A DNA stretch of 64,000 nt from Gammaproteobacteria bacterium (GTDB lineage Bacteria; Pseudomonadota; Gammaproteobacteria; Steroidobacterales; Rariloculaceae). The notes under the pieces are model-generated. The model ran no database searches. It saw only the letters and a program-made list of their open reading frames with translations, and had not been told where the DNA came from. This document shows, in pieces, positions 3,354-52,619 of the stretch. Location of the stretch: positions 7,470-71,469 of the forward strand of contig JAJDVG010000037.1 of the NCBI GenBank assembly GCA_022826245.1. Reading direction: 5' to 3'. Within the stretch, counting starts at the first letter, position 1, and every line of letters starts with the position of its first letter. The position numbers and the translations under genes are program-made.

Positions 3354-3426
3354 GCCGGTATAGCTCAGTTGGTAGAGCAGGGGTTTTGTAAACCTCAGGT
3401 CCGCGGTTCGAGTCCGTGTGCCGGCA
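3354..3426 (+). tRNA. tRNA-Thr (anticodon UGU)
   Basis: 73-nt cloverleaf: acceptor GCCGGTA/TGCCGGC, D-arm GCTC-AGTTGGTA-GAGC, anticodon loop TTTGTAA, T-arm CGCGG-TTCGAGT-CCGTG; CCA not encoded. Confidence 0.9.
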
Positions 3427-3474
3427 CCGTATCGTGCTCCGACACGTTCCGAGTCGGATACCCCCTTGGATGTC

Positions 3475-5327: not shown

Positions 5328-5540
5328 GATCACGTCCTCACTGACGCCTGGCGCACATCCGACCGGCGCAAAATCGACCTTGGTCAAACCGGCGACAGAG
5401 TAGCATTGCCTGGTTCGGCGACGCGACGCGCAGCGCCCCGGCCTGTGGCACGGCGCTGAGCGTTTGCTTGTCCATGGAAGTCCAACCCATCGAAGGCATG
5501 TTCAAGAATCACACACAGTCTGGTCATGTACAGGCCAATT

Positions 5541-5578: not shown

Positions 5579-5818
5579 ATGCCTCGAACCACAATCTCGA
5601 TGCCGCAAGACTTGGCTGACATGGCACAACGCGAGGCGCATCGCCGTGGCGTGAGTCTGTCGGCGGTGGTTCGCCAGGCGCTGGAGCAACATCTCTATCG
5701 ACACCGGGGGCGCAAGCTGCCGTGGCAGGGTCTGGTGGATCGCGACGGCCCTGCTGCGCGGGACCTCGATGCCGAACTGAATCGCGACTGGCCGACCGAC
5801 ATTGCTCGCGATCGCTGA
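5579..5818 (+). CDS. vapB: Ribbon-helix-helix (CopG/VapB-type) antitoxin
   Basis: MPRTTISMPQDLADMAQREAHRRGVSLSAVVRQALEQHL is a typical RHH N-terminus; the 3' end overlaps the PIN gene by 17 nt. The start could be as early as 5546. Confidence 0.75.
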   Translation: MPRTTISMPQDLADMAQREAHRRGVSLSAVVRQALEQHLYRHRGRKLPWQGLVDRDGPAARDLDAELNRDWPTDIARDR

Positions 5819-6209
5819 CAGCGGCCCGTTGGTAGCGTCGGTCAACGTTGCAGACCCCGATCATGCAGCGTGCGTCAAGGCCTTGTCAGGTGGCGGAATC
5901 GACATCGTCATACCGGCATTGTGCGTGGCCGAAGTCGCCTGGTTTCTTGGCAAACGCCACGGCGCGGACATCGAAGCCGTTTTTCTGGAAGGGTTGACGG
6001 ATTTCCCGGTGATTGCGCCTGACCCGGATGACTGGATGCGCATTGCAGGCCTCGTTCGCCGGTACGCGGACTTGCCGCTGGGCACCGTGGACGCGTCCGT
6101 GGCCGTGTTGGCGATGAGGCTCGGCACCGACCATATCATCACGCTCGACCGCCGGCACTTCACCGTCCTTCGCAATGCACAGGGCAAGCAATTCCAGCTT
6201 TCCCCCTGA
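5802..6209 (+). CDS. vapC: PIN-domain ribonuclease toxin VapC
   Basis: 135 aa with the conserved acidic residues in the expected places (LAIADSG, CVAEVAWF, TVDASV, TLDRRHF). Confidence 0.85.
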   Translation: MLAIADSGPLVASVNVADPDHAACVKALSGGGIDIVIPALCVAEVAWFLGKRHGADIEAVFLEGLTDFPVIAPDPDDWMRIAGLVRRYADLPLGTVDASVAVLAMRLGTDHIITLDRRHFTVLRNAQGKQFQLSP

Positions 6210-6397
6210 CAGCCTCCAGGACTGTGCCCGGGCATGTGTTTCGTCCGCTAACACCGGAAACTGTATCGAGTGGCGGCAAGACCCGCACAAGGAGAGGGAC
6301 GGCAGCACCAGGACGACCTGGCCGAGCACAAATTGGTGTCGTGCAGATAATGCTCTATGCTAGCTTTAGAGATCAGGACGACACTACGGAGTCATCG

Positions 6398-6859
6398 ATG
6401 CACCGCTCGAAATCCTTCTTCAAGACGGTAGCCCTCCTCGGCCTCGCAGTACCGGGCATCGTCATGGCGCACCATACCTGGGTCGTTGAATATGACCGCG
6501 AAGATGTCATCATCCTCGAAGGGACGGTCACCGAGGTCCAGTTGACGGCCCCGCACAGCCGGATTTTCTTCGCGGTGGAAGGGGTTGACGGAACCGCCAT
6601 CTGGGCGGGCGAATCCTGGCCGCTTGGGGCACTGTATCGGCGCGGTTTGACGAACAGCAGCCTGTCGGTGGGCGATGTGGTCCGGGTTACCGGCGAACGC
6701 GCCCGGGGCGGCCGCCTGGGCTTGCACCTCAGAAGCATCTACCGGCCCGCCGATGAATGGAGGGTCTGGATAGGACTTCGCCAGGACACGGGCGAAAATT
6801 CGTCCGCCGGGATCGGCGAAGGGGTGAATCAGGTTCAGCTTGAAGACGAGTCGGTCTAG
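6398..6859 (+). CDS. Secreted small protein, DUF6152-like (module copy 1)
   Basis: Signal peptide ends VMA|HH. Shares HHxxxxxYD...GTVTxV...PH...GDxVxVxG with ORFs 11760..12179 and the N-terminal part of 43198..44211. ATG at 6398 has ACGGAG upstream. Confidence 0.7.
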   Translation: MHRSKSFFKTVALLGLAVPGIVMAHHTWVVEYDREDVIILEGTVTEVQLTAPHSRIFFAVEGVDGTAIWAGESWPLGALYRRGLTNSSLSVGDVVRVTGERARGGRLGLHLRSIYRPADEWRVWIGLRQDTGENSSAGIGEGVNQVQLEDESV

Positions 6860-7572
6860 TGTTTGGTCAAATGGAATTCAGTCGCGTCGGCGGGTCCCGG
6901 AGGCTGATTCGGATGTGTGGAAAATCGCTCGGCCTCGCGCTTGGCCTGCTTGTGCTTCTGCCCGCGTGGGGCCATGAACCGCGACCCGCCCGAGACCAGA
7001 TGACGGATGTCTGGGTCCGGGCCGTCGGCGGCGTCGATCTCCCCGACATTTCAAATGTCACGCCTGCAGGCCAGGCTGTCATGGACGCTTACGATCATCT
7101 CACGGACGACATTCAGCGTTGCCTCATGGACTGGGGTCGTGTGAACACCGTCGCCCGGTTTCCCATGGAACTCATCGTCGCGGAGAACCAGGTCACCATC
7201 CTCTACGAATACAACCATACGGTGCGCCGTGTTTACCTCGATCAGACCGAATTTCCCGACGATTACCCTCCAAGCCTGGTCGGGTACTCCATCGGTCGTT
7301 GGGACGGCGACACGCTGGTGGTGGAAACGCGCAATCTGCTGCCGGGCTGGATCAACATGGAGGGCGTTGCGCCCTATTCGGGCGCAGCGGTGGCGACGGA
7401 ACGGTTCACGCTGGATCCTGAACAGCAAGTGCTGACGGTCGAACGCACGGTGACAGACCCGGATTACTACTCGGGCCCGGTCACATGGACAACCGTGTAC
7501 ACGCCGTCCGAGTTTCCGATCTATCCGTACGATTGCACTGTCGGTTCCTACGGGTCCAATCCTGAAGGCTGA
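6859..7572 (+). CDS. Secreted partner protein of unknown function (module copy 1)
   Basis: Signal-like LGLALGLLVLLPAWG. Motifs RCLMDWG, GYSIGRWDGDTLVVETR, ERFTL, VTDPDYYSGP and DCT are shared with 12237..13112 and the C-terminal part of 43198..44211. The GTG at 6859 overlaps the upstream stop; ATG 6913 is an alternative start. Confidence 0.7.
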   Translation: MFGQMEFSRVGGSRRLIRMCGKSLGLALGLLVLLPAWGHEPRPARDQMTDVWVRAVGGVDLPDISNVTPAGQAVMDAYDHLTDDIQRCLMDWGRVNTVARFPMELIVAENQVTILYEYNHTVRRVYLDQTEFPDDYPPSLVGYSIGRWDGDTLVVETRNLLPGWINMEGVAPYSGAAVATERFTLDPEQQVLTVERTVTDPDYYSGPVTWTTVYTPSEFPIYPYDCTVGSYGSNPEG

Positions 7573-7573
7573 G

Positions 7574-8770
7574 GTGCCCACGAACCGTTCCGGCGCCAGG
7601 ATTGCCGGCCTCGCCACGGCCGTGTTCGCAGCTTGCGTCATGCTGTCCGTTGCTCGGGCAGCGGAGTACTCGTGGGAGGTGGCCGGCAGCCATGTCGACG
7701 GCGATTCCGGCAGCGCCGTGCAAACCAACCATTCGGCGCTGCACGCGACCTGGTACCCGTCCGCGGTCGATGACGCGGTCGGTCCTTTTGAACTCGCGCC
7801 GTTTCTTAACCGCAGCAGCTATGTGACGGTCGTGGCGGGGCGCACGAAACTGCGCGAACCTTTGCTCTGGTCCTCGTTTGCAAGCGATCCCTTTTCCCGG
7901 CCGGCGGATCTGGTCGGCATGGGCATACCCGCCGAGGACGTGTTTCCGGTCTTCGGTGCGCCGTTTCCCGCGGAATCCGGTGTCGATTCATCGGAGTACG
8001 CCGTGGCCGGGCGCTACGTATGGCCGGACACCGGCTGGTACGCCGGCGCCCAGGTCCAGCAGAGCGGCGGCGATCTGCTGCCGGGTTTCTGGCTCGCACG
8101 ATCCACACTCGACCAGGACAGCAGCGAAGTGTTCGCCGGCAGGTATTTCGGTTCGCGAACCACGCTGGAACTGGCTCTCGGCTCGGGAGACGTGGACCAG
8201 GAATCGCGGACGACGCTGTCGTTGGGCATCGATCCCTTACCCGATTTCTCGCCCTTTCCCCCCGCAGTCGAACCCCTGGACTTCCGCATCGGAACGCGCG
8301 TCGAGTCGGAGAGCGCGCGGCTGTCGGTTCGCCACGCAGGCGATTTCGGCGACTCGGCCTTTGCGGTGTCGGCAAGCGTACGTCACAGCCGGTCGGAAAC
8401 ACGACTGTTCGGACTCTCGCCATTCGAGGATTTTCCTCCGGCAATCTCCATGGACCCGCCGGACCGGTTCTTCGTCGGCTCCGGCGCGCCATTGACGGCG
8501 ATCGGGTTTTCACAGACCGAACGTGAGCGTGAATTGCGTCTGTCGGGTACGTTGTTCCCGACCGACGCCCTGGGGGTACGCTTGGCGTTCTCAAGCTCGG
8601 ACCACGATACGTACGGAACCGGCGACACGGTCGACTTGTCGGCAACATGGTTTTTCGTTCGAAACGCGGCCCTGGAAATCGGGCTGAGCCGCACGGATTC
8701 CAGCCGCCCGTACGGTTCCGATTCGCGCGACATGGATTCGATCGCCGTGCGCCTGCTCGGCCGGTTCTGA
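7574..8770 (+). CDS. Outer-membrane porin-like beta-barrel (putative general porin family)
   Basis: Signal peptide, alternating beta-strand pattern, C-terminal ...AVRLLGRF ending in Phe. The GTG start lies 1 nt after the upstream stop. Confidence 0.6.
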   Translation: MPTNRSGARIAGLATAVFAACVMLSVARAAEYSWEVAGSHVDGDSGSAVQTNHSALHATWYPSAVDDAVGPFELAPFLNRSSYVTVVAGRTKLREPLLWSSFASDPFSRPADLVGMGIPAEDVFPVFGAPFPAESGVDSSEYAVAGRYVWPDTGWYAGAQVQQSGGDLLPGFWLARSTLDQDSSEVFAGRYFGSRTTLELALGSGDVDQESRTTLSLGIDPLPDFSPFPPAVEPLDFRIGTRVESESARLSVRHAGDFGDSAFAVSASVRHSRSETRLFGLSPFEDFPPAISMDPPDRFFVGSGAPLTAIGFSQTERERELRLSGTLFPTDALGVRLAFSSSDHDTYGTGDTVDLSATWFFVRNAALEIGLSRTDSSRPYGSDSRDMDSIAVRLLGRF

Positions 8771-11759: not shown

Positions 11760-12179
11760 CTATTGCCCTCTGCTCGACCCGGCAAGCATCCGCTGGCCCG
11801 TTGCGGTCATTATGATCGTCTCCGCGTTCGCGAGCGGGCTGCCGTCTCTCGCATGACTGCCCTCAACGGTAATCTCGTCTCCGGGTTGCAGGGAATCGCG
11901 TTTCCAGCCCAGGCGCAGCAATGAATTCGGACCCCCCATCTCGAGCGCCCAGTTCACGACTTCGCCGCTCTCTTCATCGGCCACGTCGATATAGATGAAG
12001 ATGTGCGGATTGGTCCACTCGACATCGGTGACCGTTCCCGTCAAGTGAACGGGTTTCGATTCATCGTATTGCGCCGGAAAGGAATGGTGAGCGGATGCCG
12101 GCAGCGCGGCCGCGAGCGTCGCAAGCGGCAACGCGATCGCGACGGCGCGGATGGTCGTGTTTGCTGTGAGCGTCTTCAT
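11760..12179 (-). CDS. Secreted small protein, DUF6152-like (module copy 2)
   Basis: Signal peptide ends ASA|HHSF; HHSFPAQYD...LTGTVTDVEWTNPHIFIYIDV...PGDEITVEG. Confidence 0.75.
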   Translation of the reverse strand: MKTLTANTTIRAVAIALPLATLAAALPASAHHSFPAQYDESKPVHLTGTVTDVEWTNPHIFIYIDVADEESGEVVNWALEMGGPNSLLRLGWKRDSLQPGDEITVEGSHARDGSPLANAETIIMTATGQRMLAGSSRGQ

Positions 12180-12236
12180 TTTTCGTCCTTTGGATTTGTT
12201 GCGCCGACGGTATCGATCGCACCGACAGCCGAAAAA

Positions 12237-13112
12237 CTAGAACGGAAGTTTCATTCGCTCGACGAACTGTTCGTTTTCCAGACAGATTTCATCGATCAGC
12301 TCTGCATCGATGACGATACGCTGCCGCAGCGTAACCGACCAGGGTTCGGTATAGGCTCTTGGATCATCAACGGTAATTCGAATATCAAGGTGGCCGAAGT
12401 CCGGACGGCTGATCTCTTCCCTGACCCTGGCCGCCTCGGTAACCACGCTGCCGTTCCAGTCGATCCAGGTGTCGTCGCGTATGCCGATCGTATCGATGAC
12501 GAGCGTATCGCCCGACCATTGCGCGGATGAAAACCCCTGCCACGAGGGCGTCGGCTCGTCCGGCAATTCGCGGCCGTCGACAAATACCTGCCGGTATCCG
12601 GCGTTCATCTCGTTCAAAACGACCAGCAGTTCCGGCGTGTGCACGAACTTCAACATGTGCGGAAGCCCGTAGGCGCGAACGAAATTGTCGGGCAGACAAC
12701 GAATGTGCGGATCCTCTATGGCCATGTTGGCGGTGCGTTCCGCGACGATCGGCAACTGCCACTCCTGGTAGGGCAAGCCGTCCGGCATGTCGGCGCCCAT
12801 ATCCGCCATGAAGCGGGAGGAACCGAGGTTGAAACCGTCGCTGGGCGACTCCTCGCCTTCGGGCGTGTTGTCGGATATCCAGATCCCGGAAAGATCGGGT
12901 CTGCCGTCGGGCATCCGCGGCGCCGGCGCCGTCATGTCGACCGAGCCGTCGGCCCTGCGCGGTACGTTCGCCGTCGGGTAGCCTATCCACTGGGCGGTGG
13001 AAGGTGTCGCGAGCAGCAACGTCCCGACCACGATCGCAGAAAGAGAAACGAACCGTGAACCATTTCGACTTCTGCAAAGCAGCACGGCTCGGAACGGGCG
13101 GGAGTAAAGCAT
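12237..13112 (-). CDS. Secreted partner protein of unknown function (module copy 2)
   Basis: Signal-like N-terminus; motifs IRCLPDNF, QGFSSAQWSGDTLVIDTIG, VDDPRAYTEPW and ICLE shared with the other two copies. Confidence 0.7.
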   Translation of the reverse strand: MLYSRPFRAVLLCRSRNGSRFVSLSAIVVGTLLLATPSTAQWIGYPTANVPRRADGSVDMTAPAPRMPDGRPDLSGIWISDNTPEGEESPSDGFNLGSSRFMADMGADMPDGLPYQEWQLPIVAERTANMAIEDPHIRCLPDNFVRAYGLPHMLKFVHTPELLVVLNEMNAGYRQVFVDGRELPDEPTPSWQGFSSAQWSGDTLVIDTIGIRDDTWIDWNGSVVTEAARVREEISRPDFGHLDIRITVDDPRAYTEPWSVTLRQRIVIDAELIDEICLENEQFVERMKLPF

Positions 13113-13274
13113 ATGCGCTCCCCTTTTCGGCTCGCCAGGGCGGTGAAAACGGCTAAAAGCGACTATCTACCGAGAGTAGATTGCCATCCTTGGGGGGTCA
13201 AGCGGAGTTCGGTCGGATCGGGCTGAGGCGCATCGGGCCGCTATGATATGAACCGGAAAGCGGAGGTATCTGCT

Positions 13275-36601: not shown

Positions 36602-39600
36602 TCAGAAGCTGAATCGCGCTCCAAGCGTGTAGCGCCGGCCGATCAGGTCGTGGAACGCGTTCGTCTGCGTCGCGTTGGCGCCGAAGTAGCCGAAGTTCGC
36701 CGAGATCGGCGGATCCTCGTCGAACAGGTTCTGCACATTGCCGTACAACTCCAGCGTCCCTTCTCCCACAGCGAGGTCATAGCGCAGGTTTGCGTCGACA
36801 TAACTCACCGACTCGATCGTGTTGTTGTCGATGTGTACGCCTTCGGTCTCGAGCACGTCACGCACGCCCCCGTCGATCCAGCGCGCCTGGATGAACGCCC
36901 GGAACGCCCCCCTGCGATAGTTGAACTGCGCCGTGATCTTTTCGGTCGGCAGGTCGAAGCCGCCGTATATCTGGCCCGCGCGATCGATCCTCGGCGAGTC
37001 GAAACCCTGGAACGAGTTTTCGGCGAGGTGAGTCGCGAGCAGGCGAATGCCCAGTTGCTCGCCGCCGCCGAACCAGTCGACGTCGGAGCGGTAGCTGACC
37101 TCGAAATCCGCGCCCTCGACGGTCGCGTTGGCGACATTGAGGAAGTTGGCCGAGACGACGTTGATGGCGCCGGGCGTGCCGTCGGGAAGGTCCGGCTGAC
37201 GGGTGATCAGCGGGCAAAGCGACACGTCGCCGATGTGACATTGGTCGACGATCTGCTGAGGCGTCAACTCCGCGATCGCATCGACGAGATCGACCTGGAA
37301 CCAGTCGATGGACACGGACAATCCGGGCGTCCCGGTCGGCTGAATCACGAACCCCATGGTGACCGTATCGGCTTCCTCGGGGCGAATGTTCGGGCTACCG
37401 CCGGTCGTGCGGAAGATCTGGAAGCGCTCGTTGTTTCTGGCCGGATCCTGCACCGAGGAAGCGCCGCCCGTCTGGTCGAAACGCTCCGAGAGCGTCCCGG
37501 CCCTGACGTCGCGCGAGCGCGTAGCCCTTAGACGCAGCGCATCGGTGAGCTGCGAATCGACGCCGGCCTTCCAGACCCACACGCCGCCCGAACCGGAGTA
37601 GTCCGCCCAGCGCGCGGCAACCGGGATATTGAGCCTGTTGTCGGCAAGCACGGGTACGAAAACCTCGCCGAACACCTCGGAAACATCCCTTGCGCCGGTG
37701 ACGTTCGGTACCTTCGAGTACTGGATGACGACCGAATTGTTCAAGTCGCCGCGAGGCATCCCCCGTATGCCGGCCGGGGCGTAGTTCATCGGCACCGGCC
37801 GCCCGGAATCGTGGTTGCCGTCGAGAATCCCCGCGCTCAACTGCGTGCCGTCGGGCGCGAAATACGGCCCGACCGGCGTGCGCGCGATCTGGTTCATCGA
37901 CTCTTCGCGCCAGCCGGCGCCGAACGCGACGCCGATCGCGCCAACCTCGCGGTCGTCGAAGAGCTCGCCGGTCATCGAGAACTCGATGACATCCTGTTCG
38001 ATCCACGAGCGGGTGATCCGGCCTTCTTCGGTGACGTAAGTGTCCGTCACGCCGAGATCGAAACCCTGCTGGGCGTAGTAGATGGGCGTCGTGACTGTCT
38101 GACCCGGGTCGAAACCCGTGACCCAGTCGATCGCGGCGTCGGACATGTTGCCCCGGCCGAAGGGATTCATCGGCACGCAGTCGGGGAACATTGCCCCCTG
38201 AGTCACGAGCGTGACGTTACAGACGATCTGGCCCGTCGCAGGATCGACCACGGCATCGTGAGCCAGGTGGATGCGGTCGAGGCGGATGCCGCCGAGTTGC
38301 CTGATCAGCGTCGTGGTTTCGCCCTGCTGAACGAAGGCGTCGACGCTCCAGCCGTCGAAGACGCCGCCACCGGACAGTTCCGCCTCAAGTCCAAGCGTCG
38401 TCGACTCGAACTCGACGTCGAGCGCGAGCGCAGCGCCGCCGCGCTTGAGGTCGGACGAATGGCCCATGCGATTGAGGTTGAAGCACGGTACCGCGTCCGG
38501 CGCAGCGGATGGCTGGCCGTTGATGCCGCAACGCCTGGAGTAGCCCGGGTCGTCCAGCACCGCCTGAATCTCCGGCGGCAGGAAGGCATTGCCGCTGTAG
38601 ATGACCATCGGCGAGAACGGCCCGTGGAACTGCCCGGCGATGTTCAGTTGCGTTCTGAACGACTCCCCGCGCAGTGCCTGCGCAAAGAGCGTGACATTGT
38701 CGCCCGCGTCGTAACTCAACCGCAGGAACTGGTTTTCCCGATCATAATCCGTCGTCAGATTCGGCAAATCCGCACCCATGTCATCGCCTTCGCCGACACC
38801 GCCGGCGATCGACTGCGACAGCCCCGGTTGTCCCGGAACGAGTCCGAACGGCGATACCGCCGTGCCCGCGGAATTGAAATTGTGATTGTGCAGCGGCGTG
38901 CCGGGCGCGAAGATGAGGCCGTCGAAGGTCGCCGTCCTCGATACGACATTGGGACGTACCAGTTCTCTCGGCCCGCTCGGGTCCGGATTGATGATGATGC
39001 CCCAGTTCTGGTACCAGTCCCGCCCTTCGTAAGTATGGATGCCGTCCTGAGTGTAGGTATCGACCGAAAAGAGCAGGTGCATGCGCTCGCCGATCGCGAA
39101 GCCGCCCGCAAATGAGGCTTCCCAGTTGTCGCCGTCGCCTTGGGCCGACTGGCCCGATTGGGCGTGGCCCCTGAGCCCCTCGAGATCCGTATCGAGGATG
39201 AAGTTCACGACGCCGGTGACGGCGTCCGTGCCGTAGGCGGCCGATGCTCCGCCCGTTACGGTCTCGACCGAGCGGAGCAATGCTTCCGGAAACGCGCTGA
39301 TGTCGGTGCCGCCGAATCGCGTCGAGGACACGACCCGCCGCCCGTCGAGCAGTACGAGCGTCCGCTTCGTACCGATGCCGCGCAGGTCCAGGTTTCCGGA
39401 ACCCGGGCTCGAGAAGAATCCGCCGGGATCGTTCGGCGTTCGATTGTTGTAGAACAGGGGCAACTGGCTAAGCGCTTCGATCACGTTGCCGGGCGCCATG
39501 AGATCGATATCCTCGCGGCCGACGACCGTCACCGGCGTGGGCGTATTCATGCCCGATGTCTGCTGGATGCGGGAGCCGGTTACCGTGACTTCCTCAAGCT

Positions 39601-39736
39601 GCGCGTCCTGGGCCATGCCGGTCGTGTGGCCGAGCCCGAGCGCAGTAAGGCAGGCAAATGCCAGCGGTTTGAGAACTGGTGTGGGCCGAGTCATTGAAAT
39701 ACTGCCAATAGGCAAACGTCGCATCGTATGCGTCAT
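36602..39736 (-). CDS. TonB-dependent outer-membrane receptor (large, about 1040 aa)
   Basis: Signal peptide, EEVTVTGSRI plug start, long beta-barrel ending ...YTLGARFSF. The start is uncertain (39736, 39724 or 39694). Confidence 0.85.
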   Translation of the reverse strand: MTHTMRRLPIGSISMTRPTPVLKPLAFACLTALGLGHTTGMAQDAQLEEVTVTGSRIQQTSGMNTPTPVTVVGREDIDLMAPGNVIEALSQLPLFYNNRTPNDPGGFFSSPGSGNLDLRGIGTKRTLVLLDGRRVVSSTRFGGTDISAFPEALLRSVETVTGGASAAYGTDAVTGVVNFILDTDLEGLRGHAQSGQSAQGDGDNWEASFAGGFAIGERMHLLFSVDTYTQDGIHTYEGRDWYQNWGIIINPDPSGPRELVRPNVVSRTATFDGLIFAPGTPLHNHNFNSAGTAVSPFGLVPGQPGLSQSIAGGVGEGDDMGADLPNLTTDYDRENQFLRLSYDAGDNVTLFAQALRGESFRTQLNIAGQFHGPFSPMVIYSGNAFLPPEIQAVLDDPGYSRRCGINGQPSAAPDAVPCFNLNRMGHSSDLKRGGAALALDVEFESTTLGLEAELSGGGVFDGWSVDAFVQQGETTTLIRQLGGIRLDRIHLAHDAVVDPATGQIVCNVTLVTQGAMFPDCVPMNPFGRGNMSDAAIDWVTGFDPGQTVTTPIYYAQQGFDLGVTDTYVTEEGRITRSWIEQDVIEFSMTGELFDDREVGAIGVAFGAGWREESMNQIARTPVGPYFAPDGTQLSAGILDGNHDSGRPVPMNYAPAGIRGMPRGDLNNSVVIQYSKVPNVTGARDVSEVFGEVFVPVLADNRLNIPVAARWADYSGSGGVWVWKAGVDSQLTDALRLRATRSRDVRAGTLSERFDQTGGASSVQDPARNNERFQIFRTTGGSPNIRPEEADTVTMGFVIQPTGTPGLSVSIDWFQVDLVDAIAELTPQQIVDQCHIGDVSLCPLITRQPDLPDGTPGAINVVSANFLNVANATVEGADFEVSYRSDVDWFGGGEQLGIRLLATHLAENSFQGFDSPRIDRAGQIYGGFDLPTEKITAQFNYRRGAFRAFIQARWIDGGVRDVLETEGVHIDNNTIESVSYVDANLRYDLAVGEGTLELYGNVQNLFDEDPPISANFGYFGANATQTNAFHDLIGRRYTLGARFSF

Positions 39737-40109
39737 TATCTGTTCCCCCCGAGGTGTTGCGGCTTCGATGCAGCGCCCCTCCATGCCGCCCGAAGCTTCG
39801 TTGTAATCCTGCGCTGTAGCGCGGTTCATGTTGTTGTATCGAGCATACGCTCTTGCCCACGCCAGTCAAGTTAGCGGCCGGCCTGCCACCTGCGGGGTGT
39901 CGATAGCCATGTTCCGGAGCCTGCCGATGAGTACAATCTGCGAATCCCCGAACGAACTGCCGTTACGAAGAAACACCAACTGAAGTGCGTTCGCGGCCTG
40001 GGACTGCGTTCTGACTTCGGCGCGCGGGGGAGCGCGGCGATGGCGCCGCGTACCAGGCAACATTTGTAAACCGCGAACCGGCTCACATGCCGGTTTGCAG
40101 GAGATGCCG

Positions 40110-41465
40110 ATGACCCGACTCGCAACCGCCTTCGCAAGCGCTTTGCTGTGCCTTGCGGCCTTGCAGGGATCGACCTCGCCGTCTGTCTATCCGACCGGTA
40201 CGACAATCTACGATCCGGAGCGTGCCTGGAACGGCTACACCGTGCTCTCGCCGCTTTCGGCCGGGGCCGCCGTCGTCATCGACATGAACGGCAACGTCGT
40301 CAAGCGCTGGGACGATTACAACAACGCGGCCGGGGGGCCTGCGCGGGTACTGCCGGGAGGCGGGATCGTCGCAGCCTCAGGCGCACGACCGCCGCACCAG
40401 GAAGCGCTCGAACTCGTGCAACGCGATTTCTACGGCGAGACGGTCTGGAGTTTCGGCCGGAACGAGCAGGTCGAAACACACGACGGCGAGACGGTCTGGT
40501 CGTCACGCCAGCACCATGACTGGCAGCGCGCCGACTTTCCGGCCGGCTACTACTCGCCCGAAGCCGAACCTGCAACGACGGGCGCCAACACACTCCTGCT
40601 GACCCACACCAACCGCGTCGAGCCCAACGTGTCCGACGTGCTGCTCGAGGACGACCGCATCATCGAGGTGTCGCCCGACGGCGAGATCGTCTGGGAATGG
40701 ATCGCGAGCGAACACATCGACGAACTGGGTTTCGACGCGGCGGCGCGTGCCACGATCGCCACGGCACCGGGCTTCAGCGCGGCGCGCGGCTCCTTCGACT
40801 GGCTGCACATCAACTCCGTGACCTACGTCGGACCCAACCGCTGGTTCGATGCGGGCGATCAACGGTTCGCGCCCGACAACGTGATCGTCAGCGGCCGTGA
40901 GGGCAACCTGATCGCCGTGATCGCGCGCGACGGATCGATCGTCTGGCGCCTCGGCCCTGAATTCGACGAATCCGAGGAACTGCTCGCCATCGGCCAGATC
41001 ATCGGCCAGCACAAGCCCCATATCATCCCGAAGGGTCTGCCCGGGGCCGGCAATGTGCTCGTCTTCGACAACGGCGGTGCGGCGGGCTACGGCGTTGCGA
41101 GCCCGGTTGCTCCGGACGGCGACAACATCTATGCACGGACGTCGTCGCGCGTGCTCGAAATCGATCCGCTGACGCTCGAACTCGTCTGGTCCTACGCGTC
41201 AGCCAGCTTCCTGAGTTGGAACATCAGCAGCGCGCAGCGGCTCGCCAACGGCAATACGCTCATCACCGAAGGCGCGAGCGGACGCCTCTTTGAGGTGACG
41301 AGCGACGGAGACATCGTATGGGAGTACATGTATCCGCACGATGAAGGGGGGCGCAACGACGTCTATCGGGGCTACCGCCTGCCCTACGGGTGGATCCCGC
41401 AACTCGACCGGCCGGAAGAACTCTCCGTGACGCCACCGCCGCCCGGTGAGTTCCGGGTACCGTAG
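40110..41465 (+). CDS. Secreted arylsulfotransferase (ASST)-family beta-propeller protein
   Basis: Signal peptide; FDWLHINSV, NVLVFDNG and repeated IVWEW/IVWEY blades typical of aryl-sulfate sulfotransferase-like proteins. CAGGAG lies before the ATG at 40110. Confidence 0.65.
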   Translation: MTRLATAFASALLCLAALQGSTSPSVYPTGTTIYDPERAWNGYTVLSPLSAGAAVVIDMNGNVVKRWDDYNNAAGGPARVLPGGGIVAASGARPPHQEALELVQRDFYGETVWSFGRNEQVETHDGETVWSSRQHHDWQRADFPAGYYSPEAEPATTGANTLLLTHTNRVEPNVSDVLLEDDRIIEVSPDGEIVWEWIASEHIDELGFDAAARATIATAPGFSAARGSFDWLHINSVTYVGPNRWFDAGDQRFAPDNVIVSGREGNLIAVIARDGSIVWRLGPEFDESEELLAIGQIIGQHKPHIIPKGLPGAGNVLVFDNGGAAGYGVASPVAPDGDNIYARTSSRVLEIDPLTLELVWSYASASFLSWNISSAQRLANGNTLITEGASGRLFEVTSDGDIVWEYMYPHDEGGRNDVYRGYRLPYGWIPQLDRPEELSVTPPPPGEFRVP

Positions 41466-41550
41466 CTTGCCGTTCGTTTGCGCTCGGGGGCGGGTGAACG
41501 ATGGTAGCGGAAACGAGGTCCGACCGCCTGTTCGTTAGTATTGGAGTGAC

Positions 41551-43164
41551 GTGAACTACGATCTCAGGACTTTCCGGGGCGATCTCTTCGGCGGTCTCAC
41601 CTCAACCGTCGTCGCGCTGCCCGTGGCACTGGCGTTCGGAATCGCGTCGGGCCTCGGGGCAGCCGCGGGCCTGTACGGCGCGATCGCTGTCGGCTTCTTC
41701 GCCTCGGCCTTCGGCGGCACCCGCTCGCAGATATCAGGTCCCACACCATCGATGACCGTCGCCATGGCGGTCATCGTCACGTCCCACGCGACGACGTTGA
41801 CCGAAGCCCTGACGGTGGTCGTCATGGGCGGCTTGCTCCAGGTGCTGCTCGGTCTCTTCAGGTTCGGCCGCTACATCGTCTATACGCCCCATGTCGTCAT
41901 CTCCGGGTTCATGTCGGGCATCGGCATCATCATCATGCTCATCCAGGTGTTGCCGTTCATCGGGGCGCCTACGTCTCCCGAGGGGCCCATGGGCGCAGTT
42001 CGCGACCTGCCGGCGGCGCTCGGCAACATCAACGCGAGCGCCGTGGCGATCGCCCTCGTGACGCTCGGGATCGGTATCGTCTGGCCGGCCCGGTTGTCGC
42101 GCCTGCTGCCGGCGCCGATCGTAGGCCTGATCGCGGGCACGCTGCTCGGCGTGCTGTGGCTCACCGATGCGCCGGTCATCGGCCAGATCCCGGCCGGACT
42201 GCCCGCGCTCCGGTTCGAGTTGCCCTCGTTCGCCTTCCTGATCGCCGCGATCCATCCTGCGATCATTCTTGCCCTGCTCGGCTCCGTCGACAGTCTGCTG
42301 ACTTCGCTGATCGCCGATTCGCTGACCGGAACGCGCCACAATCCGGACCGGGAACTCGTCGGGCAGGGGCTCGGCAACATGGTCGCGGGACTGTTCGGAG
42401 GGCTGCCCGGCGCGGGCGCCACGATGGGCACGGTGACCAATATCCGGGCCGGCGGCCGGACCCAGGTATCGGGGATCCTCAGGGCCGTCCTGCTGCTCGC
42501 CCTGCTGCTCGGACTCGGCCGGCTCGTCGAACCGATTCCCCATGCCGCACTTGCGGGGATCCTCATGAAAATCGGCTGGGACGTCATCGACTGGCGGATG
42601 CTCCGCCGCACGCACCGAATTCAGGCGCACTACATGTTCATCATGGTGACGACGCTGTCTCTGACCGTGTTCGTGGATCTCGTCACGGCCGTTGCCATCG
42701 GGCTCATCGCCGCGGGACTTGCCCATGCGCGGCAACTCGAGGGTCTGGAACTCGACAGCGTGGTCTCGGTACCGATGCTCGATCAGACGTTCTTTGCCGG
42801 CATGGAGCGGATGGCGAACGACGACCCGCTCGCGGCGCGAGTGGGCCTGGTGGCGCTGCGCGGAACCTTCACCGTGGCGTCGTCACACAAACTGGTCACG
42901 GTCATGAGCGTGGACATTCGCGATCACGATGTCGTCATCTTCGATTTCTCGGGAGCAACCCACCTGGACGACAGCGCGGCCATGGTCATAGAGCAACTCA
43001 TCGACGTAGCGCGCAGGGCGGACACCGAGATCATCATCATCGGGCTGTCGGGCACCGTGGGCCATACGCTCGAAACGCTCAACGTCCTGCGCAAGGTGCC
43101 GACGGAACGCATCGTCGACACGCTCGATGAGGCGCGGGAGATCGCCGCGGATCTGCTTGATTGA
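41551..43164 (+). CDS. SulP-family anion (sulfate/bicarbonate) transporter with C-terminal STAS domain
   Basis: DLFGGLTSTVVALPVALAFG, multiple TM helices, and a STAS-like C-terminus (VVIFDFSGATHLDDSA). Confidence 0.9.
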   Translation: MNYDLRTFRGDLFGGLTSTVVALPVALAFGIASGLGAAAGLYGAIAVGFFASAFGGTRSQISGPTPSMTVAMAVIVTSHATTLTEALTVVVMGGLLQVLLGLFRFGRYIVYTPHVVISGFMSGIGIIIMLIQVLPFIGAPTSPEGPMGAVRDLPAALGNINASAVAIALVTLGIGIVWPARLSRLLPAPIVGLIAGTLLGVLWLTDAPVIGQIPAGLPALRFELPSFAFLIAAIHPAIILALLGSVDSLLTSLIADSLTGTRHNPDRELVGQGLGNMVAGLFGGLPGAGATMGTVTNIRAGGRTQVSGILRAVLLLALLLGLGRLVEPIPHAALAGILMKIGWDVIDWRMLRRTHRIQAHYMFIMVTTLSLTVFVDLVTAVAIGLIAAGLAHARQLEGLELDSVVSVPMLDQTFFAGMERMANDDPLAARVGLVALRGTFTVASSHKLVTVMSVDIRDHDVVIFDFSGATHLDDSAAMVIEQLIDVARRADTEIIIIGLSGTVGHTLETLNVLRKVPTERIVDTLDEAREIAADLLD

Positions 43165-43197
43165 GCCGCACCCTGACCTGTCCAACGGCCGGGGCCG

Positions 43198-44211
43198 CTA
43201 TTGCCTGTCGGCGGGAAGCTCGCAGTTGAACGGCATGACCTGCTGGCCGGGAATCCAGGTCCAACGGACTTCCATGGGTACGGGTTCGGTGAAGTTCACC
43301 GGATCGACTACTTCTCCCTCCCAGACAAGATCCGTACCGTCCTCGCTCAGGATGAACCGTTCGTTGATGACCACATCCTCGCTTTGCGGCGTGCCGATGT
43401 CGTCGACGTAGCGCCAATCGATGTCCCGGGTTTCCACGACAAGCGTATTGCCCTCCCAACGACCGACGGAGCGCCCCATCCGCGGCTGCGACGGCTCCCC
43501 GTCGCCATCGAGATGGATCACCCGTTCGCCGTCCCACTCCTCCAGCCGCATGAGGATGGCCCCGCCCCGGTCTTCGAAGGACACGGGATACGGGTTGGCC
43601 ATGACGGTCGGCATCCCCGGCGGAATGCACTCGAGCGCCGGGTCCTCCTCCGGATCCCACAGGGCCTGAACGGCCCGCCCGGCCTCGGTCAGCGGATAGC
43701 CGGAACCGCCGTCCATGGACAGGGCATTCCTGAACGTAACCGGCACCCAGACCCGGAAGATGTCCGCACGCAAGGACGCGTCGGCAGTGTCGGCCTCGCG
43801 CTGCGCGTTCTCCGTGATGTTGTAGCGGCGGTCGGTCTCCGCCTGCAGGGCCACTTCCCGACCGTCGGGCAGGACGATCCCGGTCGCGAACATGGCCGTC
43901 AGTCCGTTGCGTCCCATGCTCCCGGAAACGGACACGCGGTCGCCTACAGCCAACAGATCCCTGGAGACGCCGAGGCGCACGACCGTATTGACCGAACCGA
44001 ACTCGATCTCCCACTCCTCGTCTTGCCCGCCTTCGCCGCTGCGGCTCAAGAGCAGGCGCACGTGGGGATTTCGCCAGAAGACGTCGGTGATCTCGCCCTC
44101 TATCGTCCCCTGGTCGTTGGGATCGTAGCGCCCGATCTCCGCGTGATGCGCCGTTGCAGCGATGGCCGCCAGGGAAGCCGCCAGAAGCAAGCCGATTTGA
44201 AGGCCGCGCAT
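43198..44211 (-). CDS. Secreted fusion protein: DUF6152-like N-domain plus partner-family C-domain (module copy 3)
   Basis: Signal peptide ATA|HH. N-terminal part: HHAEIGRYD...IEGEITDVFWRNPHVRLLL...VGDRVSVSG. C-terminal part: LECIPPGM, GRSVGRWEGNTLVVETRD, NERFIL, VVDPVNFTEP and NCE. Confidence 0.7.
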   Translation of the reverse strand: MRGLQIGLLLAASLAAIAATAHHAEIGRYDPNDQGTIEGEITDVFWRNPHVRLLLSRSGEGGQDEEWEIEFGSVNTVVRLGVSRDLLAVGDRVSVSGSMGRNGLTAMFATGIVLPDGREVALQAETDRRYNITENAQREADTADASLRADIFRVWVPVTFRNALSMDGGSGYPLTEAGRAVQALWDPEEDPALECIPPGMPTVMANPYPVSFEDRGGAILMRLEEWDGERVIHLDGDGEPSQPRMGRSVGRWEGNTLVVETRDIDWRYVDDIGTPQSEDVVINERFILSEDGTDLVWEGEVVDPVNFTEPVPMEVRWTWIPGQQVMPFNCELPADRQ

Positions 44212-44223
44212 GTTCGCTCCCGG

Positions 44224-44640
44224 CTACAGGCGAACGATCCGGCGGGAATTCATCGGCGCCAGAACGAACGATTCGAGCGAATCCGCGGTCAGTGGCAGAA
44301 AATCGCGTTGAGCGGCGAAGTAGAGCACGTTCTCGCCGAACATCCTGAGTTCGTACGCCCGCTGCCGGTCGATGAGGCCCGCAACGGGAGGCCGGACATC
44401 GGCGGTGCAAATGCCTTTCAATGACCGGTACCACAACGCGTCGGTACGCCCGCTGAACTCCACGACCGTTGCTCCCCGGACCCCGAGTTTCCCGGCAAAG
44501 GCCATGGATTCGGAGTGTTTGGGGTCCGCGAGTACGACCCAGCCGTTCAGGTCGTTCGTGCGCGCAGCCAATGTAGCCGGCACGGCGCCGAATGCCACCG
44601 AAAGGCCCGCGGATTTAATCAGGTCACGCCGAGTGAGCAT
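44224..44640 (-). CDS. Small Tat-signal protein of unknown function
   Basis: MLTRRDLIKSAGLSVAFGAVPATLAA twin-arginine motif; ends 12 nt upstream of the fusion gene. Confidence 0.55.
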   Translation of the reverse strand: MLTRRDLIKSAGLSVAFGAVPATLAARTNDLNGWVVLADPKHSESMAFAGKLGVRGATVVEFSGRTDALWYRSLKGICTADVRPPVAGLIDRQRAYELRMFGENVLYFAAQRDFLPLTADSLESFVLAPMNSRRIVRL

Positions 44641-44801
44641 GCGGTCACCTCAAGTTGTGTCCGCAGATCATACACGAAGGCCAGCTACGGATACGCCAGC
44701 GCGCGAACGATCTTGCAGTGCGGATTCCCGCCTGCGACACTCGGCCCCTGCCGGCGCGTGCGCCGTGCAGATTGGACGAATTCACTCGAAGGACGATTCC
44801 A

Positions 44802-46424
44802 ATGGCTCTACCACCCGGCTTGACCGAATCCCGGTTTTCCGAAGCGCTCGAGCAATTCGCCTCGGCCGTCGGCTCCGACTGGGTATTCAGCTCCGACGAA
44901 GATGTTGCGCTCTACCGGGACTCGTATTCGGTCTACTGGGGCGAAGAAGAAGAACGCGTCGCTTCTGCGGCCGTAGCGCCGGCCAACGTCGAACAAGTGC
45001 AACAGGTCGTGCGGATAGCCAATCGCTACGGGATACCGCTGTACCCGATCTCGACCGGCCGCAATCTGACCTACGGCGGTTCGGCGCCGACGCTGAGCGG
45101 AAGCGTCGTTGTCGATCTCAAGAGGATGAATCGCATCCTCAAGGTCGACGACGAACGCAATTTTGCCCTTGTGGAACCGGGCGTCTCGTACTACGACCTC
45201 TACAACTACATCCGGGACAACGATCTGAGGGTCATGCTCGACGTGCCCGACCCGGGCTGGGGCAGCCCCATCGGCAACAGCCTCGACCACGGCTGCGGGT
45301 ACACGCTGTCGCCGTTTCGGGATCACTTCGGATCGCACTGCGGCATGGAGGTGGTGACGCCCGAAGGCGATGTCGTTCGTACCGGCGCGGGCGCGGTGCC
45401 CGGCTCCGACGCCTGGCAGGACTTTCACTACGGCGCCGGCCCCACCATAAACGGCCTGTTCGCCCAGTCCAATTTCGGCATCGTCACGAAGATGGGTTTC
45501 TGGCTGATGCCGTTGCCGGAGGCTTTCCTGATCGGTACCGTGACCGTACCGCGCTACCGCGATTTCGCCGCGCTGATACGGGAAGCCAGCTATCTCGAGG
45601 ATTTGTACCTGATCGGCATGCCGTGGTACACGAGCCCGGCCAGTGGCGGCGCCTTCATCGGGACGCCGCCGGAGCTTGCCGCGCTCATGCAGGACGGCTG
45701 GCCGTCGACCGGTCAACTCGAGGAGTTCGTTCGCGCGAAGGGCGTTCCGGCCTGGTCGCTCGATCTGCGATTCTACGGACCCGAGGAAACGGTCCGCGCG
45801 AACTGGGCGGCGGCCCGACGGCGTCTCGCGGCCGCGATACCCGATGCCGCGTTCGAGGATCATGACCTGGTCGAATTGCCGATACCGCGTGACGAGGAAA
45901 CGAGCTTTTCACACAAACCGGAAGTGGGCATCCCGGCGCTCGACGCCTTCATGCTCGTTGCGCGGAACCCCGGGACGACAGACGACCCTCCGGACGGGCA
46001 TGCCGACTTCTTCGCCATGCTGCCGAGAACCGCCGACGCCGTTCACTCCGCGGCCCGGGTCTTTGCCGAAACGTACGCGGAAGTCGGGTTCCCGCCGTTG
46101 CACCATCCGTTCTCGATACCGGTCAGCTACTATTCCCGCTGCTTCATCATGGGCACGGTGGTGCCGACATGGCGAGATGCGGAGAGGAACGCGCGCTCGC
46201 GGACCCTCTACGAACGTCTCGTTGCGCGGTGCGGCGAGAACGGCTGGGGCTGCTACCGTACCGCGCCGGCGTTTCAGGACCTGGTAGTCAGCCAGTACTC
46301 CTTCAACGACAACGCACTGTTGAAGTTCCAGGAGAAGCTGAAGGACGGGATCGATCCCAACGGGATCATTTCTCCGGGCCGTTACGGCATCTGGCCTGCC
46401 AGCATGAGGAACAACCGCGCATGA
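44802..46424 (+). CDS. FAD-linked oxidase of the VAO/PCMH family (4-cresol dehydrogenase / eugenol hydroxylase-like flavoprotein subunit)
   Basis: PCMH-type FAD-binding domain (IPLYPISTGRNLTYGG, VVDLKRMNRIL, EPGVSYYDLY) and C-terminal DPNGIISPGRYGIW. No signal peptide. Confidence 0.8.
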   Translation: MALPPGLTESRFSEALEQFASAVGSDWVFSSDEDVALYRDSYSVYWGEEEERVASAAVAPANVEQVQQVVRIANRYGIPLYPISTGRNLTYGGSAPTLSGSVVVDLKRMNRILKVDDERNFALVEPGVSYYDLYNYIRDNDLRVMLDVPDPGWGSPIGNSLDHGCGYTLSPFRDHFGSHCGMEVVTPEGDVVRTGAGAVPGSDAWQDFHYGAGPTINGLFAQSNFGIVTKMGFWLMPLPEAFLIGTVTVPRYRDFAALIREASYLEDLYLIGMPWYTSPASGGAFIGTPPELAALMQDGWPSTGQLEEFVRAKGVPAWSLDLRFYGPEETVRANWAAARRRLAAAIPDAAFEDHDLVELPIPRDEETSFSHKPEVGIPALDAFMLVARNPGTTDDPPDGHADFFAMLPRTADAVHSAARVFAETYAEVGFPPLHHPFSIPVSYYSRCFIMGTVVPTWRDAERNARSRTLYERLVARCGENGWGCYRTAPAFQDLVVSQYSFNDNALLKFQEKLKDGIDPNGIISPGRYGIWPASMRNNRA

Positions 46425-46786
46425 AACGGAGCCTTCTACTGCTTGTCCTTCTCGCCGCCTCCCAGGGTGCGCTTGCGCAGACCACGCCTTCGGCCGAGAA
46501 CGGCAGGACCGTATTCGCGAAGTGGTGTACACCCTGTCATGGCGCCGACATCGTCACGGGAGAACTCTGGGGGCGCGCCCCGGCTCCGGGCACCGCGGCG
46601 CTGCAGCTCAAGTACAGGGGCGAGCTGCCGGCAGTACTCGAGGAACGAACCGACCTCACTGGGGAGTTCATCGAGACCGTTGTTCGGGGCGGCCTGTTCG
46701 GAATGCCGATCACCAGGAAGACCGAAATCAGCGACTCCGAACTGGAAGACATCATCGCCTATCTGACGAAGGGCGACGCGGGCTGA
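46421..46786 (+). CDS. Class I c-type cytochrome (flavocytochrome c small subunit-like)
   Basis: Sec signal peptide, CTPCH heme motif, distal Met (GLFGMP). The ATG overlaps the flavoprotein stop (ATGA). Confidence 0.8.
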   Translation: MKRSLLLLVLLAASQGALAQTTPSAENGRTVFAKWCTPCHGADIVTGELWGRAPAPGTAALQLKYRGELPAVLEERTDLTGEFIETVVRGGLFGMPITRKTEISDSELEDIIAYLTKGDAG

Positions 46787-52528: not shown

Positions 52529-52619
52529 TGGCGGAGAGGGAGGGATTCGAACCCTCGAAGGGCTATCAACCCTTACTCCCTTAGCAGGGGAGCGCTTTCA
52601 GCCACTCAGCCACCTCTCC
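52529..52619 (-). tRNA. tRNA-Ser (anticodon GCU)
   Basis: 91 nt, acceptor GGAGAGG/CCTCTCC, anticodon loop CTGCTAA, long variable arm, T-loop GGTTCGAATCC, CCA encoded. Confidence 0.9.

Follow-up and report, generated by a model that had tools for sequence, protein, structure and literature searches.

A DUF6152-barrel fusion gene of a gammaproteobacterium as the probable single-chain form of a conserved two-protein periplasmic module

In the genome of a gammaproteobacterium of the family Rariloculaceae, a single gene encodes a protein of the DUF6152 family joined to a lipocalin-like barrel. The fusion gene lies in a stretch of 64,000 nucleotides of contig JAJDVG010000037.1 (GenBank assembly GCA_022826245.1; positions 7,470 to 71,469 of the forward strand), hereafter the window, which also carries two split pairs in which the same two parts are encoded by separate genes (Table 1). 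The G+C content of the window is approximately 65%, metagenome-assembled Gammaproteobacteria hold exact or near-exact copies of its proteins, and relatives of these proteins carry the labels Candidatus Rariloculus or Rariloculaceae. An initial annotation had proposed that the two halves of the fusion correspond to the proteins of the split pairs and are expected to act together. As described below, the fusion is, with high probability, a genuine and conserved single-chain form of a two-protein periplasmic module.

When the 337-residue fusion was compared by BLASTP with all six-frame open reading frames (ORFs) of the window, residues 21-115 matched ORFs 11763..12236(-) (E 1e-13) and 6032..6856(+) (E 1.5e-7), and residues 174-332 matched ORFs 6844..7569(+) (E 2e-9) and 12240..13166(-) (E 4e-6); the best match beyond those four ORFs had an E value of 0.64. 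Profile hidden Markov models (HMMs) of the N- and C-domains were made from 84 fused homologues and picked disjoint sets of ORFs. The N-domain profile matched the small proteins of split pairs 2 and 1 (E 5e-21 and 5e-11, respectively), the C-domain profile matched the barrel partners of pairs 1 and 2 (E 3e-23 and 3e-15, respectively), and no further copies of either half were found among the window ORFs at E better than 0.05. The 64 kb contain three copies of the module, one fused and two split, as paralogues in one genome. The range of the profile matches (E 5e-11 to 3e-23) counters the possibility that the halves are unrelated to the stand-alone proteins and bears out the proposed alignment of the first 125 or so residues with the two small proteins. 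The C-terminal part had been given as about 210 residues; its homology to the stand-alone partners stands and its length is revised, the fusion being divided into approximately 125 residues, a linker of approximately 22 residues, and approximately 190 residues.

The Pfam model of DUF6152 (PF19649), which has a length of only about 95 residues and a gathering threshold of 27 bits, spans residues 15-105 of the fusion (E 2.6e-20, 72.7 bits), and the two stand-alone small proteins score 107.2 and 55.1 bits against it. Both small proteins and the N-domain of the fusion are members of this catalogued family, whereas the 190-residue C-domain and the stand-alone partners lie outside the Pfam model; neither the C-terminal part nor either partner has a match in Pfam or NCBIfam. 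As had been noted from the alignment, the motifs HHxxxxxYD, (E/T)(I/V)T(D/E)V, PH, and GDxVxVxG are common to the fusion and both small proteins, with the last motif reading GDEITVEG in one copy. Homology to the partners opens at approximately residue 148 with R-x-D-x3-(V/I)-W, a motif that also begins both mature stand-alone partners. Each stand-alone partner, like each stand-alone small protein, has its own Sec-type signal peptide, and the fusion has one at the N-terminus only. A single N-terminal signal peptide, with none on the internal domain, is what would be expected of a true fusion of two exported proteins.

Table 1. Positions of the fusion gene, its parts, the split pairs and other features in the window
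Feature	Positions	Strand	Description
Fusion gene	43198..44211	(-)	337 amino acids plus stop codon; signal peptide, DUF6152 OB domain, linker, lipocalin/FABP-like barrel
Sec signal peptide of fusion	44149..44211	(-)	residues 1-21, MRGLQIGLLLAASLAAIAATA; predicted cut before His22-His23
DUF6152 domain of fusion	43837..44148	(-)	residues 22-125; OB fold
Inter-domain linker	43771..43836	(-)	residues 126-147; short helices in model, poorly conserved in alignments
Partner-type domain	43201..43770	(-)	residues 148-337; 8-stranded barrel
Spacer	44212..44223	(-)	12 nt between 138-residue gene and fusion; GGGAG ribosome-binding site, no terminator
138-residue protein, twin-arginine signal	44224..44640	(-)	begins MLTRRDLIK
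Stand-alone DUF6152 protein, copy 1 (pair 1)	6398..6859	(+)	signal peptide then HH; Pfam E 8e-15
Stand-alone barrel partner, copy 1 (pair 1)	6859..7572	(+)	own signal peptide; start overlaps stop of small gene
Porin-like gene	7574..8770	(+)	398 amino acids; abuts split pair 1 with 1-nt gap; Porin_7 E 3e-5, below cut-off
Stand-alone DUF6152 protein, copy 2 (pair 2)	11760..12179	(-)	Pfam E 4.6e-31
Stand-alone barrel partner, copy 2 (pair 2)	12237..13112	(-)	own signal peptide; upstream of small gene, order partner then small
p-Cresol methylhydroxylase-like flavocytochrome c	44799..46786	(+)	flavin subunit 44799..46424, no signal peptide; cytochrome c 46400..46786
Arylsulfotransferase-like gene	40095..41465
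SulP/STAS transporter gene	41551..43164
ORF resembling PIN-domain (VapC-type) toxin, by sequence reading alone	5802..6209	(+)	just upstream of split pair 1
tRNA-Thr(TGT)	3354..3428	(+)	ARAGORN
tRNA-Ser(GCT)	52529..52619	(-)	ARAGORN

One concern with any gene of this type is that two neighboring genes might have been joined artificially, through misassembly or a frameshift. Among 5.8 billion proteins, more than 110 were retrieved as full-length homologues of 330-340 amino acids (49-91% identity); all of them have PF19649, and several are on contigs of 3-6 Mb. Assemblies from NCBI, ENA, and Logan share the identical fusion sequence. With more than 110 homologues of the same architecture in independent assemblies, a linker that is conserved, and an internal domain that lacks the signal peptide found on both stand-alone partners, the artefact is refuted and its probability is negligible. 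The sole frameshift-like case is the reverse one: in L009, a 93%-identical relative, the ortholog (4475..5487) is called as proteins of 230 and 117 amino acids split within the barrel domain, owing either to a frameshift in sequencing or to decay into a pseudogene. Databases already list the protein under the name 'DUF6152 family protein', and the fusion is therefore no novelty in itself. The pairing of DUF6152 with a huge barrel family that lacks a name appears to be undescribed, as does the conserved N-terminal His-His discussed below.

Conservation within the 84 fused homologues extends over both domains. Residues H22, H23, W46-R47-N48-P49-H50, W67, C195, and E224-E225-W226 are invariant, E70 and C330 are nearly so (at least 90%), and in the motif R148-x-D-I-F-R-V-W-x-P at the start of the barrel domain W155 and P157 are invariant and the rest nearly so. 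The conserved features of the barrel domain are C195/C330, E224, R230, G246-x-S-x-G-x-W252, E284-R285, and D303-P304.

The link between the two parts extends far beyond the window. When the three barrels were combined in a profile and run against 1.84 billion sequences, 13,986 cluster representatives matched at E<=1e-3, and 7,392 of these reached E<=1e-10; the clusters are defined at 50% identity, and the roughly 14,000 of them occur in Proteobacteria, Acidobacteriota, and other phyla. The barrel partner of pair 2 has more than 5,800 homologues, none of them named, and for the barrel family no Pfam model, solved structure, or literature was found. No literature on DUF6152 was found either. The HMMs classified the best 150 of the 13,986 representatives as 90 barrel-only proteins, 46 N-C fusions in which DUF6152 precedes the barrel (approximately 30%), and 14 barrel-barrel tandems; a database search for other fused and split architectures had been suggested in the initial annotation. 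The tandems are 450-530 amino acids in length, and a few barrel proteins have a C-terminal DUF3471 or OmpA (peptidoglycan-binding) domain; the variant architectures are covered by P0384, P0409, P0436, P0415, and P0289-P0295.

Gene order was compared at 80 loci from species-representative genomes of Gammaproteobacteria, Alphaproteobacteria, Acidobacteriota, Gemmatimonadota, and Actinomycetota. Among the 151 barrel ORFs at these loci, 17 are fused N-C with DUF6152, 25 are adjacent with DUF6152 first, 30 are adjacent with the barrel first, 38 are in multi-barrel arrays that end in one DUF6152 gene, and 41 have no DUF6152 detected nearby. The arrays contain up to five barrel paralogues for one DUF6152 gene. 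Viewed from the other side, a same-strand barrel gene adjoins 52 of the 59 stand-alone DUF6152 ORFs, in either order. Neither the 80 loci nor the best 150 representatives include a C-N fusion (i.e., barrel then DUF6152), though the corresponding gene order is equally common. When 324 barrel domains were clustered by the unweighted pair group method with arithmetic mean (UPGMA), 67 of the 78 fused copies fell in one clade, which suggests that the fusion arose at least three times and that there is one main fused clade; UPGMA and parsimony are crude, and the result is used qualitatively.

Both fusion and conserved adjacency support the functional link, and the DUF6152 and barrel proteins very probably act as one unit. 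We infer that the split proteins form a complex. As with the Rosetta-stone links of Marcotte and Enright, non-homologous proteins occur either separate or fused, and adjacency provides independent support. The present case differs from those links in that one genome has both split and fused paralogues, and in that the barrel is moderately promiscuous, being fused also to itself, to DUF3471, and to OmpA. Fusion and adjacency together connect a catalogued family, DUF6152, to a very large nameless barrel family. DUF6152 and the barrel become one tractable unit, and the fusion offers a single polypeptide that could be expressed for metal and ligand tests.

An AlphaFold2 model of the fusion, based on the 84-sequence alignment, is a compact two-domain structure with a mean predicted local distance difference test (pLDDT) score of 86 and a predicted template modeling score (pTM) of 0.82. 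Such a compact model, the 52 of 59 adjacencies across phyla, and the more than 110 fusions agree with the expectation that the fused halves act together. Foldseek, one of the checks that had been proposed, gave an OB fold followed by an FABP-type barrel. The PDB matches were generic for both domains: OB folds of the LysRS anticodon-binding domain, SSB, and PriB for the N-domain (TMt ~0.5-0.66), and FABP1 for the C-domain (TMt 0.58, E ~3e-3). A weak sequence match to ApoD was found (E 0.12), the lipocalin models of Pfam were not matched, and there was no significant PDB sequence match for the fusion, the small protein, or the barrel profile. The two barrel cysteines are conserved at 97-98%, and C195 and C330 probably form a disulfide. 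Given the export signals on all components and the barrel cysteines, the module is predicted to be periplasmic or extracytoplasmic.

An obvious question is what such a module does, and the most conserved feature of DUF6152 is a starting point. In 75 of 76 divergent DUF6152 domains, a hydrophobic signal peptide ending in Ala (A|) runs straight into His-His, and A, G, or S occupies position -1 in 74 of 74 family members. The signal peptide of the fusion has a hydrophobic core and A-x-A at positions -3/-1. Asn-Pro-His is invariant in the 76 members, and a Trp (89%) and a Glu (96%) are conserved. The fusion and both small proteins of the window show all of these hallmarks (signal peptide, A|HH, NPH, W, and E). 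In the copper histidine brace, a His at residue 1 is bared by signal-peptide cleavage and is accompanied by a second conserved His (PMC10952591).

One possibility is that signal peptidase exposes the predicted N-terminal His-His of DUF6152, and that this His-His would build a brace-type metal site on the OB domain together with the invariant turn Asn-Pro-His and perhaps with Tyr29 and Asp30. Copper would be the likeliest metal. The barrel could hold a ligand or substrate in its pocket, and one DUF6152 subunit could serve several barrel paralogues. If DUF6152 requires a free N-terminus, this would explain why the fusions are only N-C and never C-N. This metal-site mechanism, drawn from sequence conservation, is tentative and may well be wrong; blended with the architecture, it forms part of an overall explanation that we consider moderately probable. 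The conserved His-His at the mature N-terminus nevertheless makes for a sharp first hypothesis.

CopC is paired or fused with CopD (PMC12362106), and CopC-CopD and YcnI-YcnJ are known as pairings (PMC8424229 and PMC12362106). DUF6152 resembles the histidine-brace proteins (CopC-CopD, YcnI-YcnJ, PmoF, and the LPMOs) in being secreted, in its predicted mature N-terminal His, and in its second conserved His. A further likeness to CopC-CopD and YcnI-YcnJ is that some arrays have genes for membrane proteins of weak CopD/DUF2214 likeness behind them. One or two membrane proteins of the DUF6644 family follow the arrays in approximately 12 of the 80 loci, and DUF6644 is the only recurrent neighbor in the census of flanking genes (6 of 130 flanking ORFs). 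All 20 membrane proteins tested are DUF6644 proteins, and some of them also matched DUF2214 (7 of 20, best E 2e-5), CopD (3 of 20, best E 0.0026), or UPF0093 (3 of 20). We take DUF2214, CopD, and UPF0093 to belong to a CopD-like group of Pfam families. Tandem examples of DUF6644 downstream of arrays include L025 7218..8527, L055 1995..3364, L087 7980..9122, and L075 6544..7516, among others, and a His in the first helix of the DUF6644 proteins is invariant.

These likenesses raise the possibility that DUF6152 is a new OB-fold class of histidine-brace-type cuproprotein, a common metal subunit for interchangeable barrels, either separate from them or fused N-C, that is unmasked when the signal peptide is removed and is coupled in some bacteria to a CopD-like (DUF6644) protein; we consider this extended form unlikely. 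Several observations weigh against the overall explanation. No DUF6644 or CopD-like ORF was found in the window at E<=1, which sets this locus apart from CopC/CopD systems, and the CopD likeness of DUF6644 is sub-threshold. Copper-handling genes were absent from the 130 flanking ORFs of the neighbor census, and neither copper genes nor a universal third gene were found in the contexts of six fused orthologs. The DUF6152 domain is an OB fold, whereas the known histidine-brace proteins are beta-sandwiches, and segment 21-30 of the fusion model, which contains the His-His, has a mean pLDDT of 65, indicating moderate confidence. Within the barrel, neither a His nor a Met is conserved. The barrel ORFs with no detectable DUF6152 gene nearby (41 of 151) indicate that the barrel can also work alone or with undetected partners. 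No experiment, structure, or literature was found for either family.

DUF6152 would be at most an analogue, and not a member, of the histidine-brace proteins (LPMO, X325, CopC, PmoB/PmoF, and YcnI), from which it differs in its OB fold, and the lipocalin-like barrel as an obligatory partner has no counterpart in those systems. A literature search found nothing that joins the histidine brace with an OB fold. Should the proposal hold, the histidine-brace principle would be extended to a new fold and a common periplasmic system; in the extended form, a widespread periplasmic system for copper-dependent oxidation or trafficking would be present in soil and marine bacteria. Should the metal site fail, the pair remains a well-defined target for the discovery of function.

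Other periplasmic metal proteins offer looser parallels. CusF is a periplasmic OB-fold copper chaperone and a precedent for a metal-binding periplasmic OB fold, ZinT/YodA is a lipocalin-like periplasmic metal handler with a His-rich N-terminus, and AdcA is a fusion of ZnuA and ZinT that serves as a precedent for a metal-acquisition pair that is both fused and split. None of the three was among the 50 PDB matches listed, by sequence or by Foldseek. The Met/Trp site of CusF and the His cluster of ZinT are absent from the DUF6152-barrel proteins. ZinT-like zinc binding by the barrel was considered and rejected as a claim of membership, there being no conserved His cluster.

The main alternative explanation is that the module is metal-free, the barrel being an enzyme or binder of a small hydrophobic or aromatic compound and the OB domain a lid, dimerization, or docking subunit in which the His-His would serve catalysis or recognition. 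The FABP/lipocalin-like fold of the barrel fits this explanation, as do its conserved charged residues of the buried type (E224, R230, E284-R285, and D303), which are not accompanied by a conserved His or Met. Arrays with up to five barrel paralogues per DUF6152 gene suggest substrate-specific subunits. The neighbors are mostly catabolic or uptake genes, including those for metallo-beta-lactamase-fold proteins, sulfatase, arylsulfotransferase, p-cresol methylhydroxylase (PCMH)-like proteins, pyrroloquinoline quinone dehydrogenases, TonB receptors, and TctA. However, a metal-free module leaves unexplained both the near-absolute conservation of His as the first mature residue (75 of 76) and the lack of C-N fusions, and no match to an enzyme family was found by sequence or fold. 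We regard the metal-free explanation as plausible, though less likely than not.

The fusion is preceded on the same strand by the gene for the 138-residue protein, which the initial annotation had described as a TRRDLIK protein ending 12 nt upstream, probably co-transcribed, and possibly cofactor-bearing. The ORF itself is confirmed. The 12-nt gap has the sequence ccgggagcgaac, in which the GGGAG Shine-Dalgarno sequence precedes the ATG by 7 nt, and no terminator-like site was found between the genes; promoter and terminator scans were uninformative. The protein conforms to a twin-arginine translocation (Tat) signal, with T-R-R-D-L-I-K followed by SAGLSVAFGAVPATLAA|R, which comprises a hydrophobic region and an A-x-A-like site (LAA|R). 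It has 48 homologues, almost all of exactly 138 amino acids and with 63-99% identity, in which R4, R5, and K9 are invariant. Its AlphaFold2 model was unusable (pLDDT 46.7).

It is possible, if improbable, that the 138-residue Tat protein acts with the fusion at this locus as a third subunit that carries a cofactor. The spacing, the shared strand, the ribosome-binding site, and the absence of a terminator are consistent with such a role, and the 138-residue gene lies less than 2 kb from a DUF6152 fusion in L005-L009. In L005-L008, however, that fusion is a paralogue of 29% identity on the opposite strand, convergent to the 138-residue gene and located behind cytochrome c and ricin-B-like genes. 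In L009 (93% DNA identity), the space from the stop of the 138-residue gene to the start of the fusion is filled exactly by 1.6 kb of DNA with an LVIVD-repeat gene on the opposite strand. Collinearity with L002, the nearest full ortholog context (84% identity), ends at the ATG of the fusion, and a 501-residue metallo-beta-lactamase-fold (Lactamase_B) gene is upstream instead. In L001, L003, and L090-L092 the 138-residue gene is not beside the fusion. The protein itself also speaks against a cofactor-bearing component: the 48 homologues have no cofactor motif, one invariant Cys, and no conserved His or Cys cluster, and the protein has no Pfam, NCBIfam, or PDB match.

The 12-nt juxtaposition is lineage-specific, and the 138-residue gene is not a conserved component of the DUF6152-barrel module. 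Co-transcription with the fusion in this genome is plausible given the 12-nt gap, the shared strand, and the lack of a terminator, and the arrangement is not conserved in L009 or L002; such co-transcription would stem from a recent rearrangement. The 138-residue protein may have a loose functional association with the class of DUF6152 fusions. L004-L008 (e.g., L007 5505..7923) share a recurring operon, convergent to the 138-residue gene, for a di-haem cytochrome c, a small ricin-B-lectin-like protein, and optionally a DUF6152 fusion; L090 (5856..6940) likewise has ricin-B-like genes close to a fused ortholog. The 138-residue ORF was also considered as a remnant of the upstream Lactamase_B gene, which was rejected as the sequences are unrelated.

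A different partner for the 138-residue protein is suggested by the genes on its other side. Of six informative contexts, four (the window, L004, L007, and L009) show the 138-residue gene divergent from genes for a PCMH-like flavin adenine dinucleotide (FAD) subunit and a cytochrome c. The FAD subunit of the window matches the PCMH structure PDB 9h40_A (E 3e-167) and has no signal peptide, and the cytochrome c gene that follows it was identified with Pfam. Such a recurrent divergent neighbor, with its signal-less FAD subunit, would be a better fit to a Tat escort than to a third subunit of the fusion, and the 138-residue protein might escort the signal-less flavoprotein through Tat. These neighboring genes share the FAD subunit and cytochrome c with flavocytochromes c of the PCMH type and differ in the extra conserved Tat-signal protein, encoded divergently and not found in the described enzyme. 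No relevant literature was found for pchX or for PCMH with twin-arginine.

The remaining genes around the three copies of the module are of several types. The porin-like gene next to split pair 1 suggests an outer-membrane component in the operon of that pair alone and is a possible third gene; it is not a conserved partner elsewhere, and the neighbor census contained no universal third gene. Downstream of the fusion, the arylsulfotransferase-like gene and the SulP/STAS transporter gene are syntenic in close relatives, as judged by comparing positions 39000..43200 with L002 and L009, and in L009 an extra insert containing FmdA/AmdA separates the fusion from the SulP gene.

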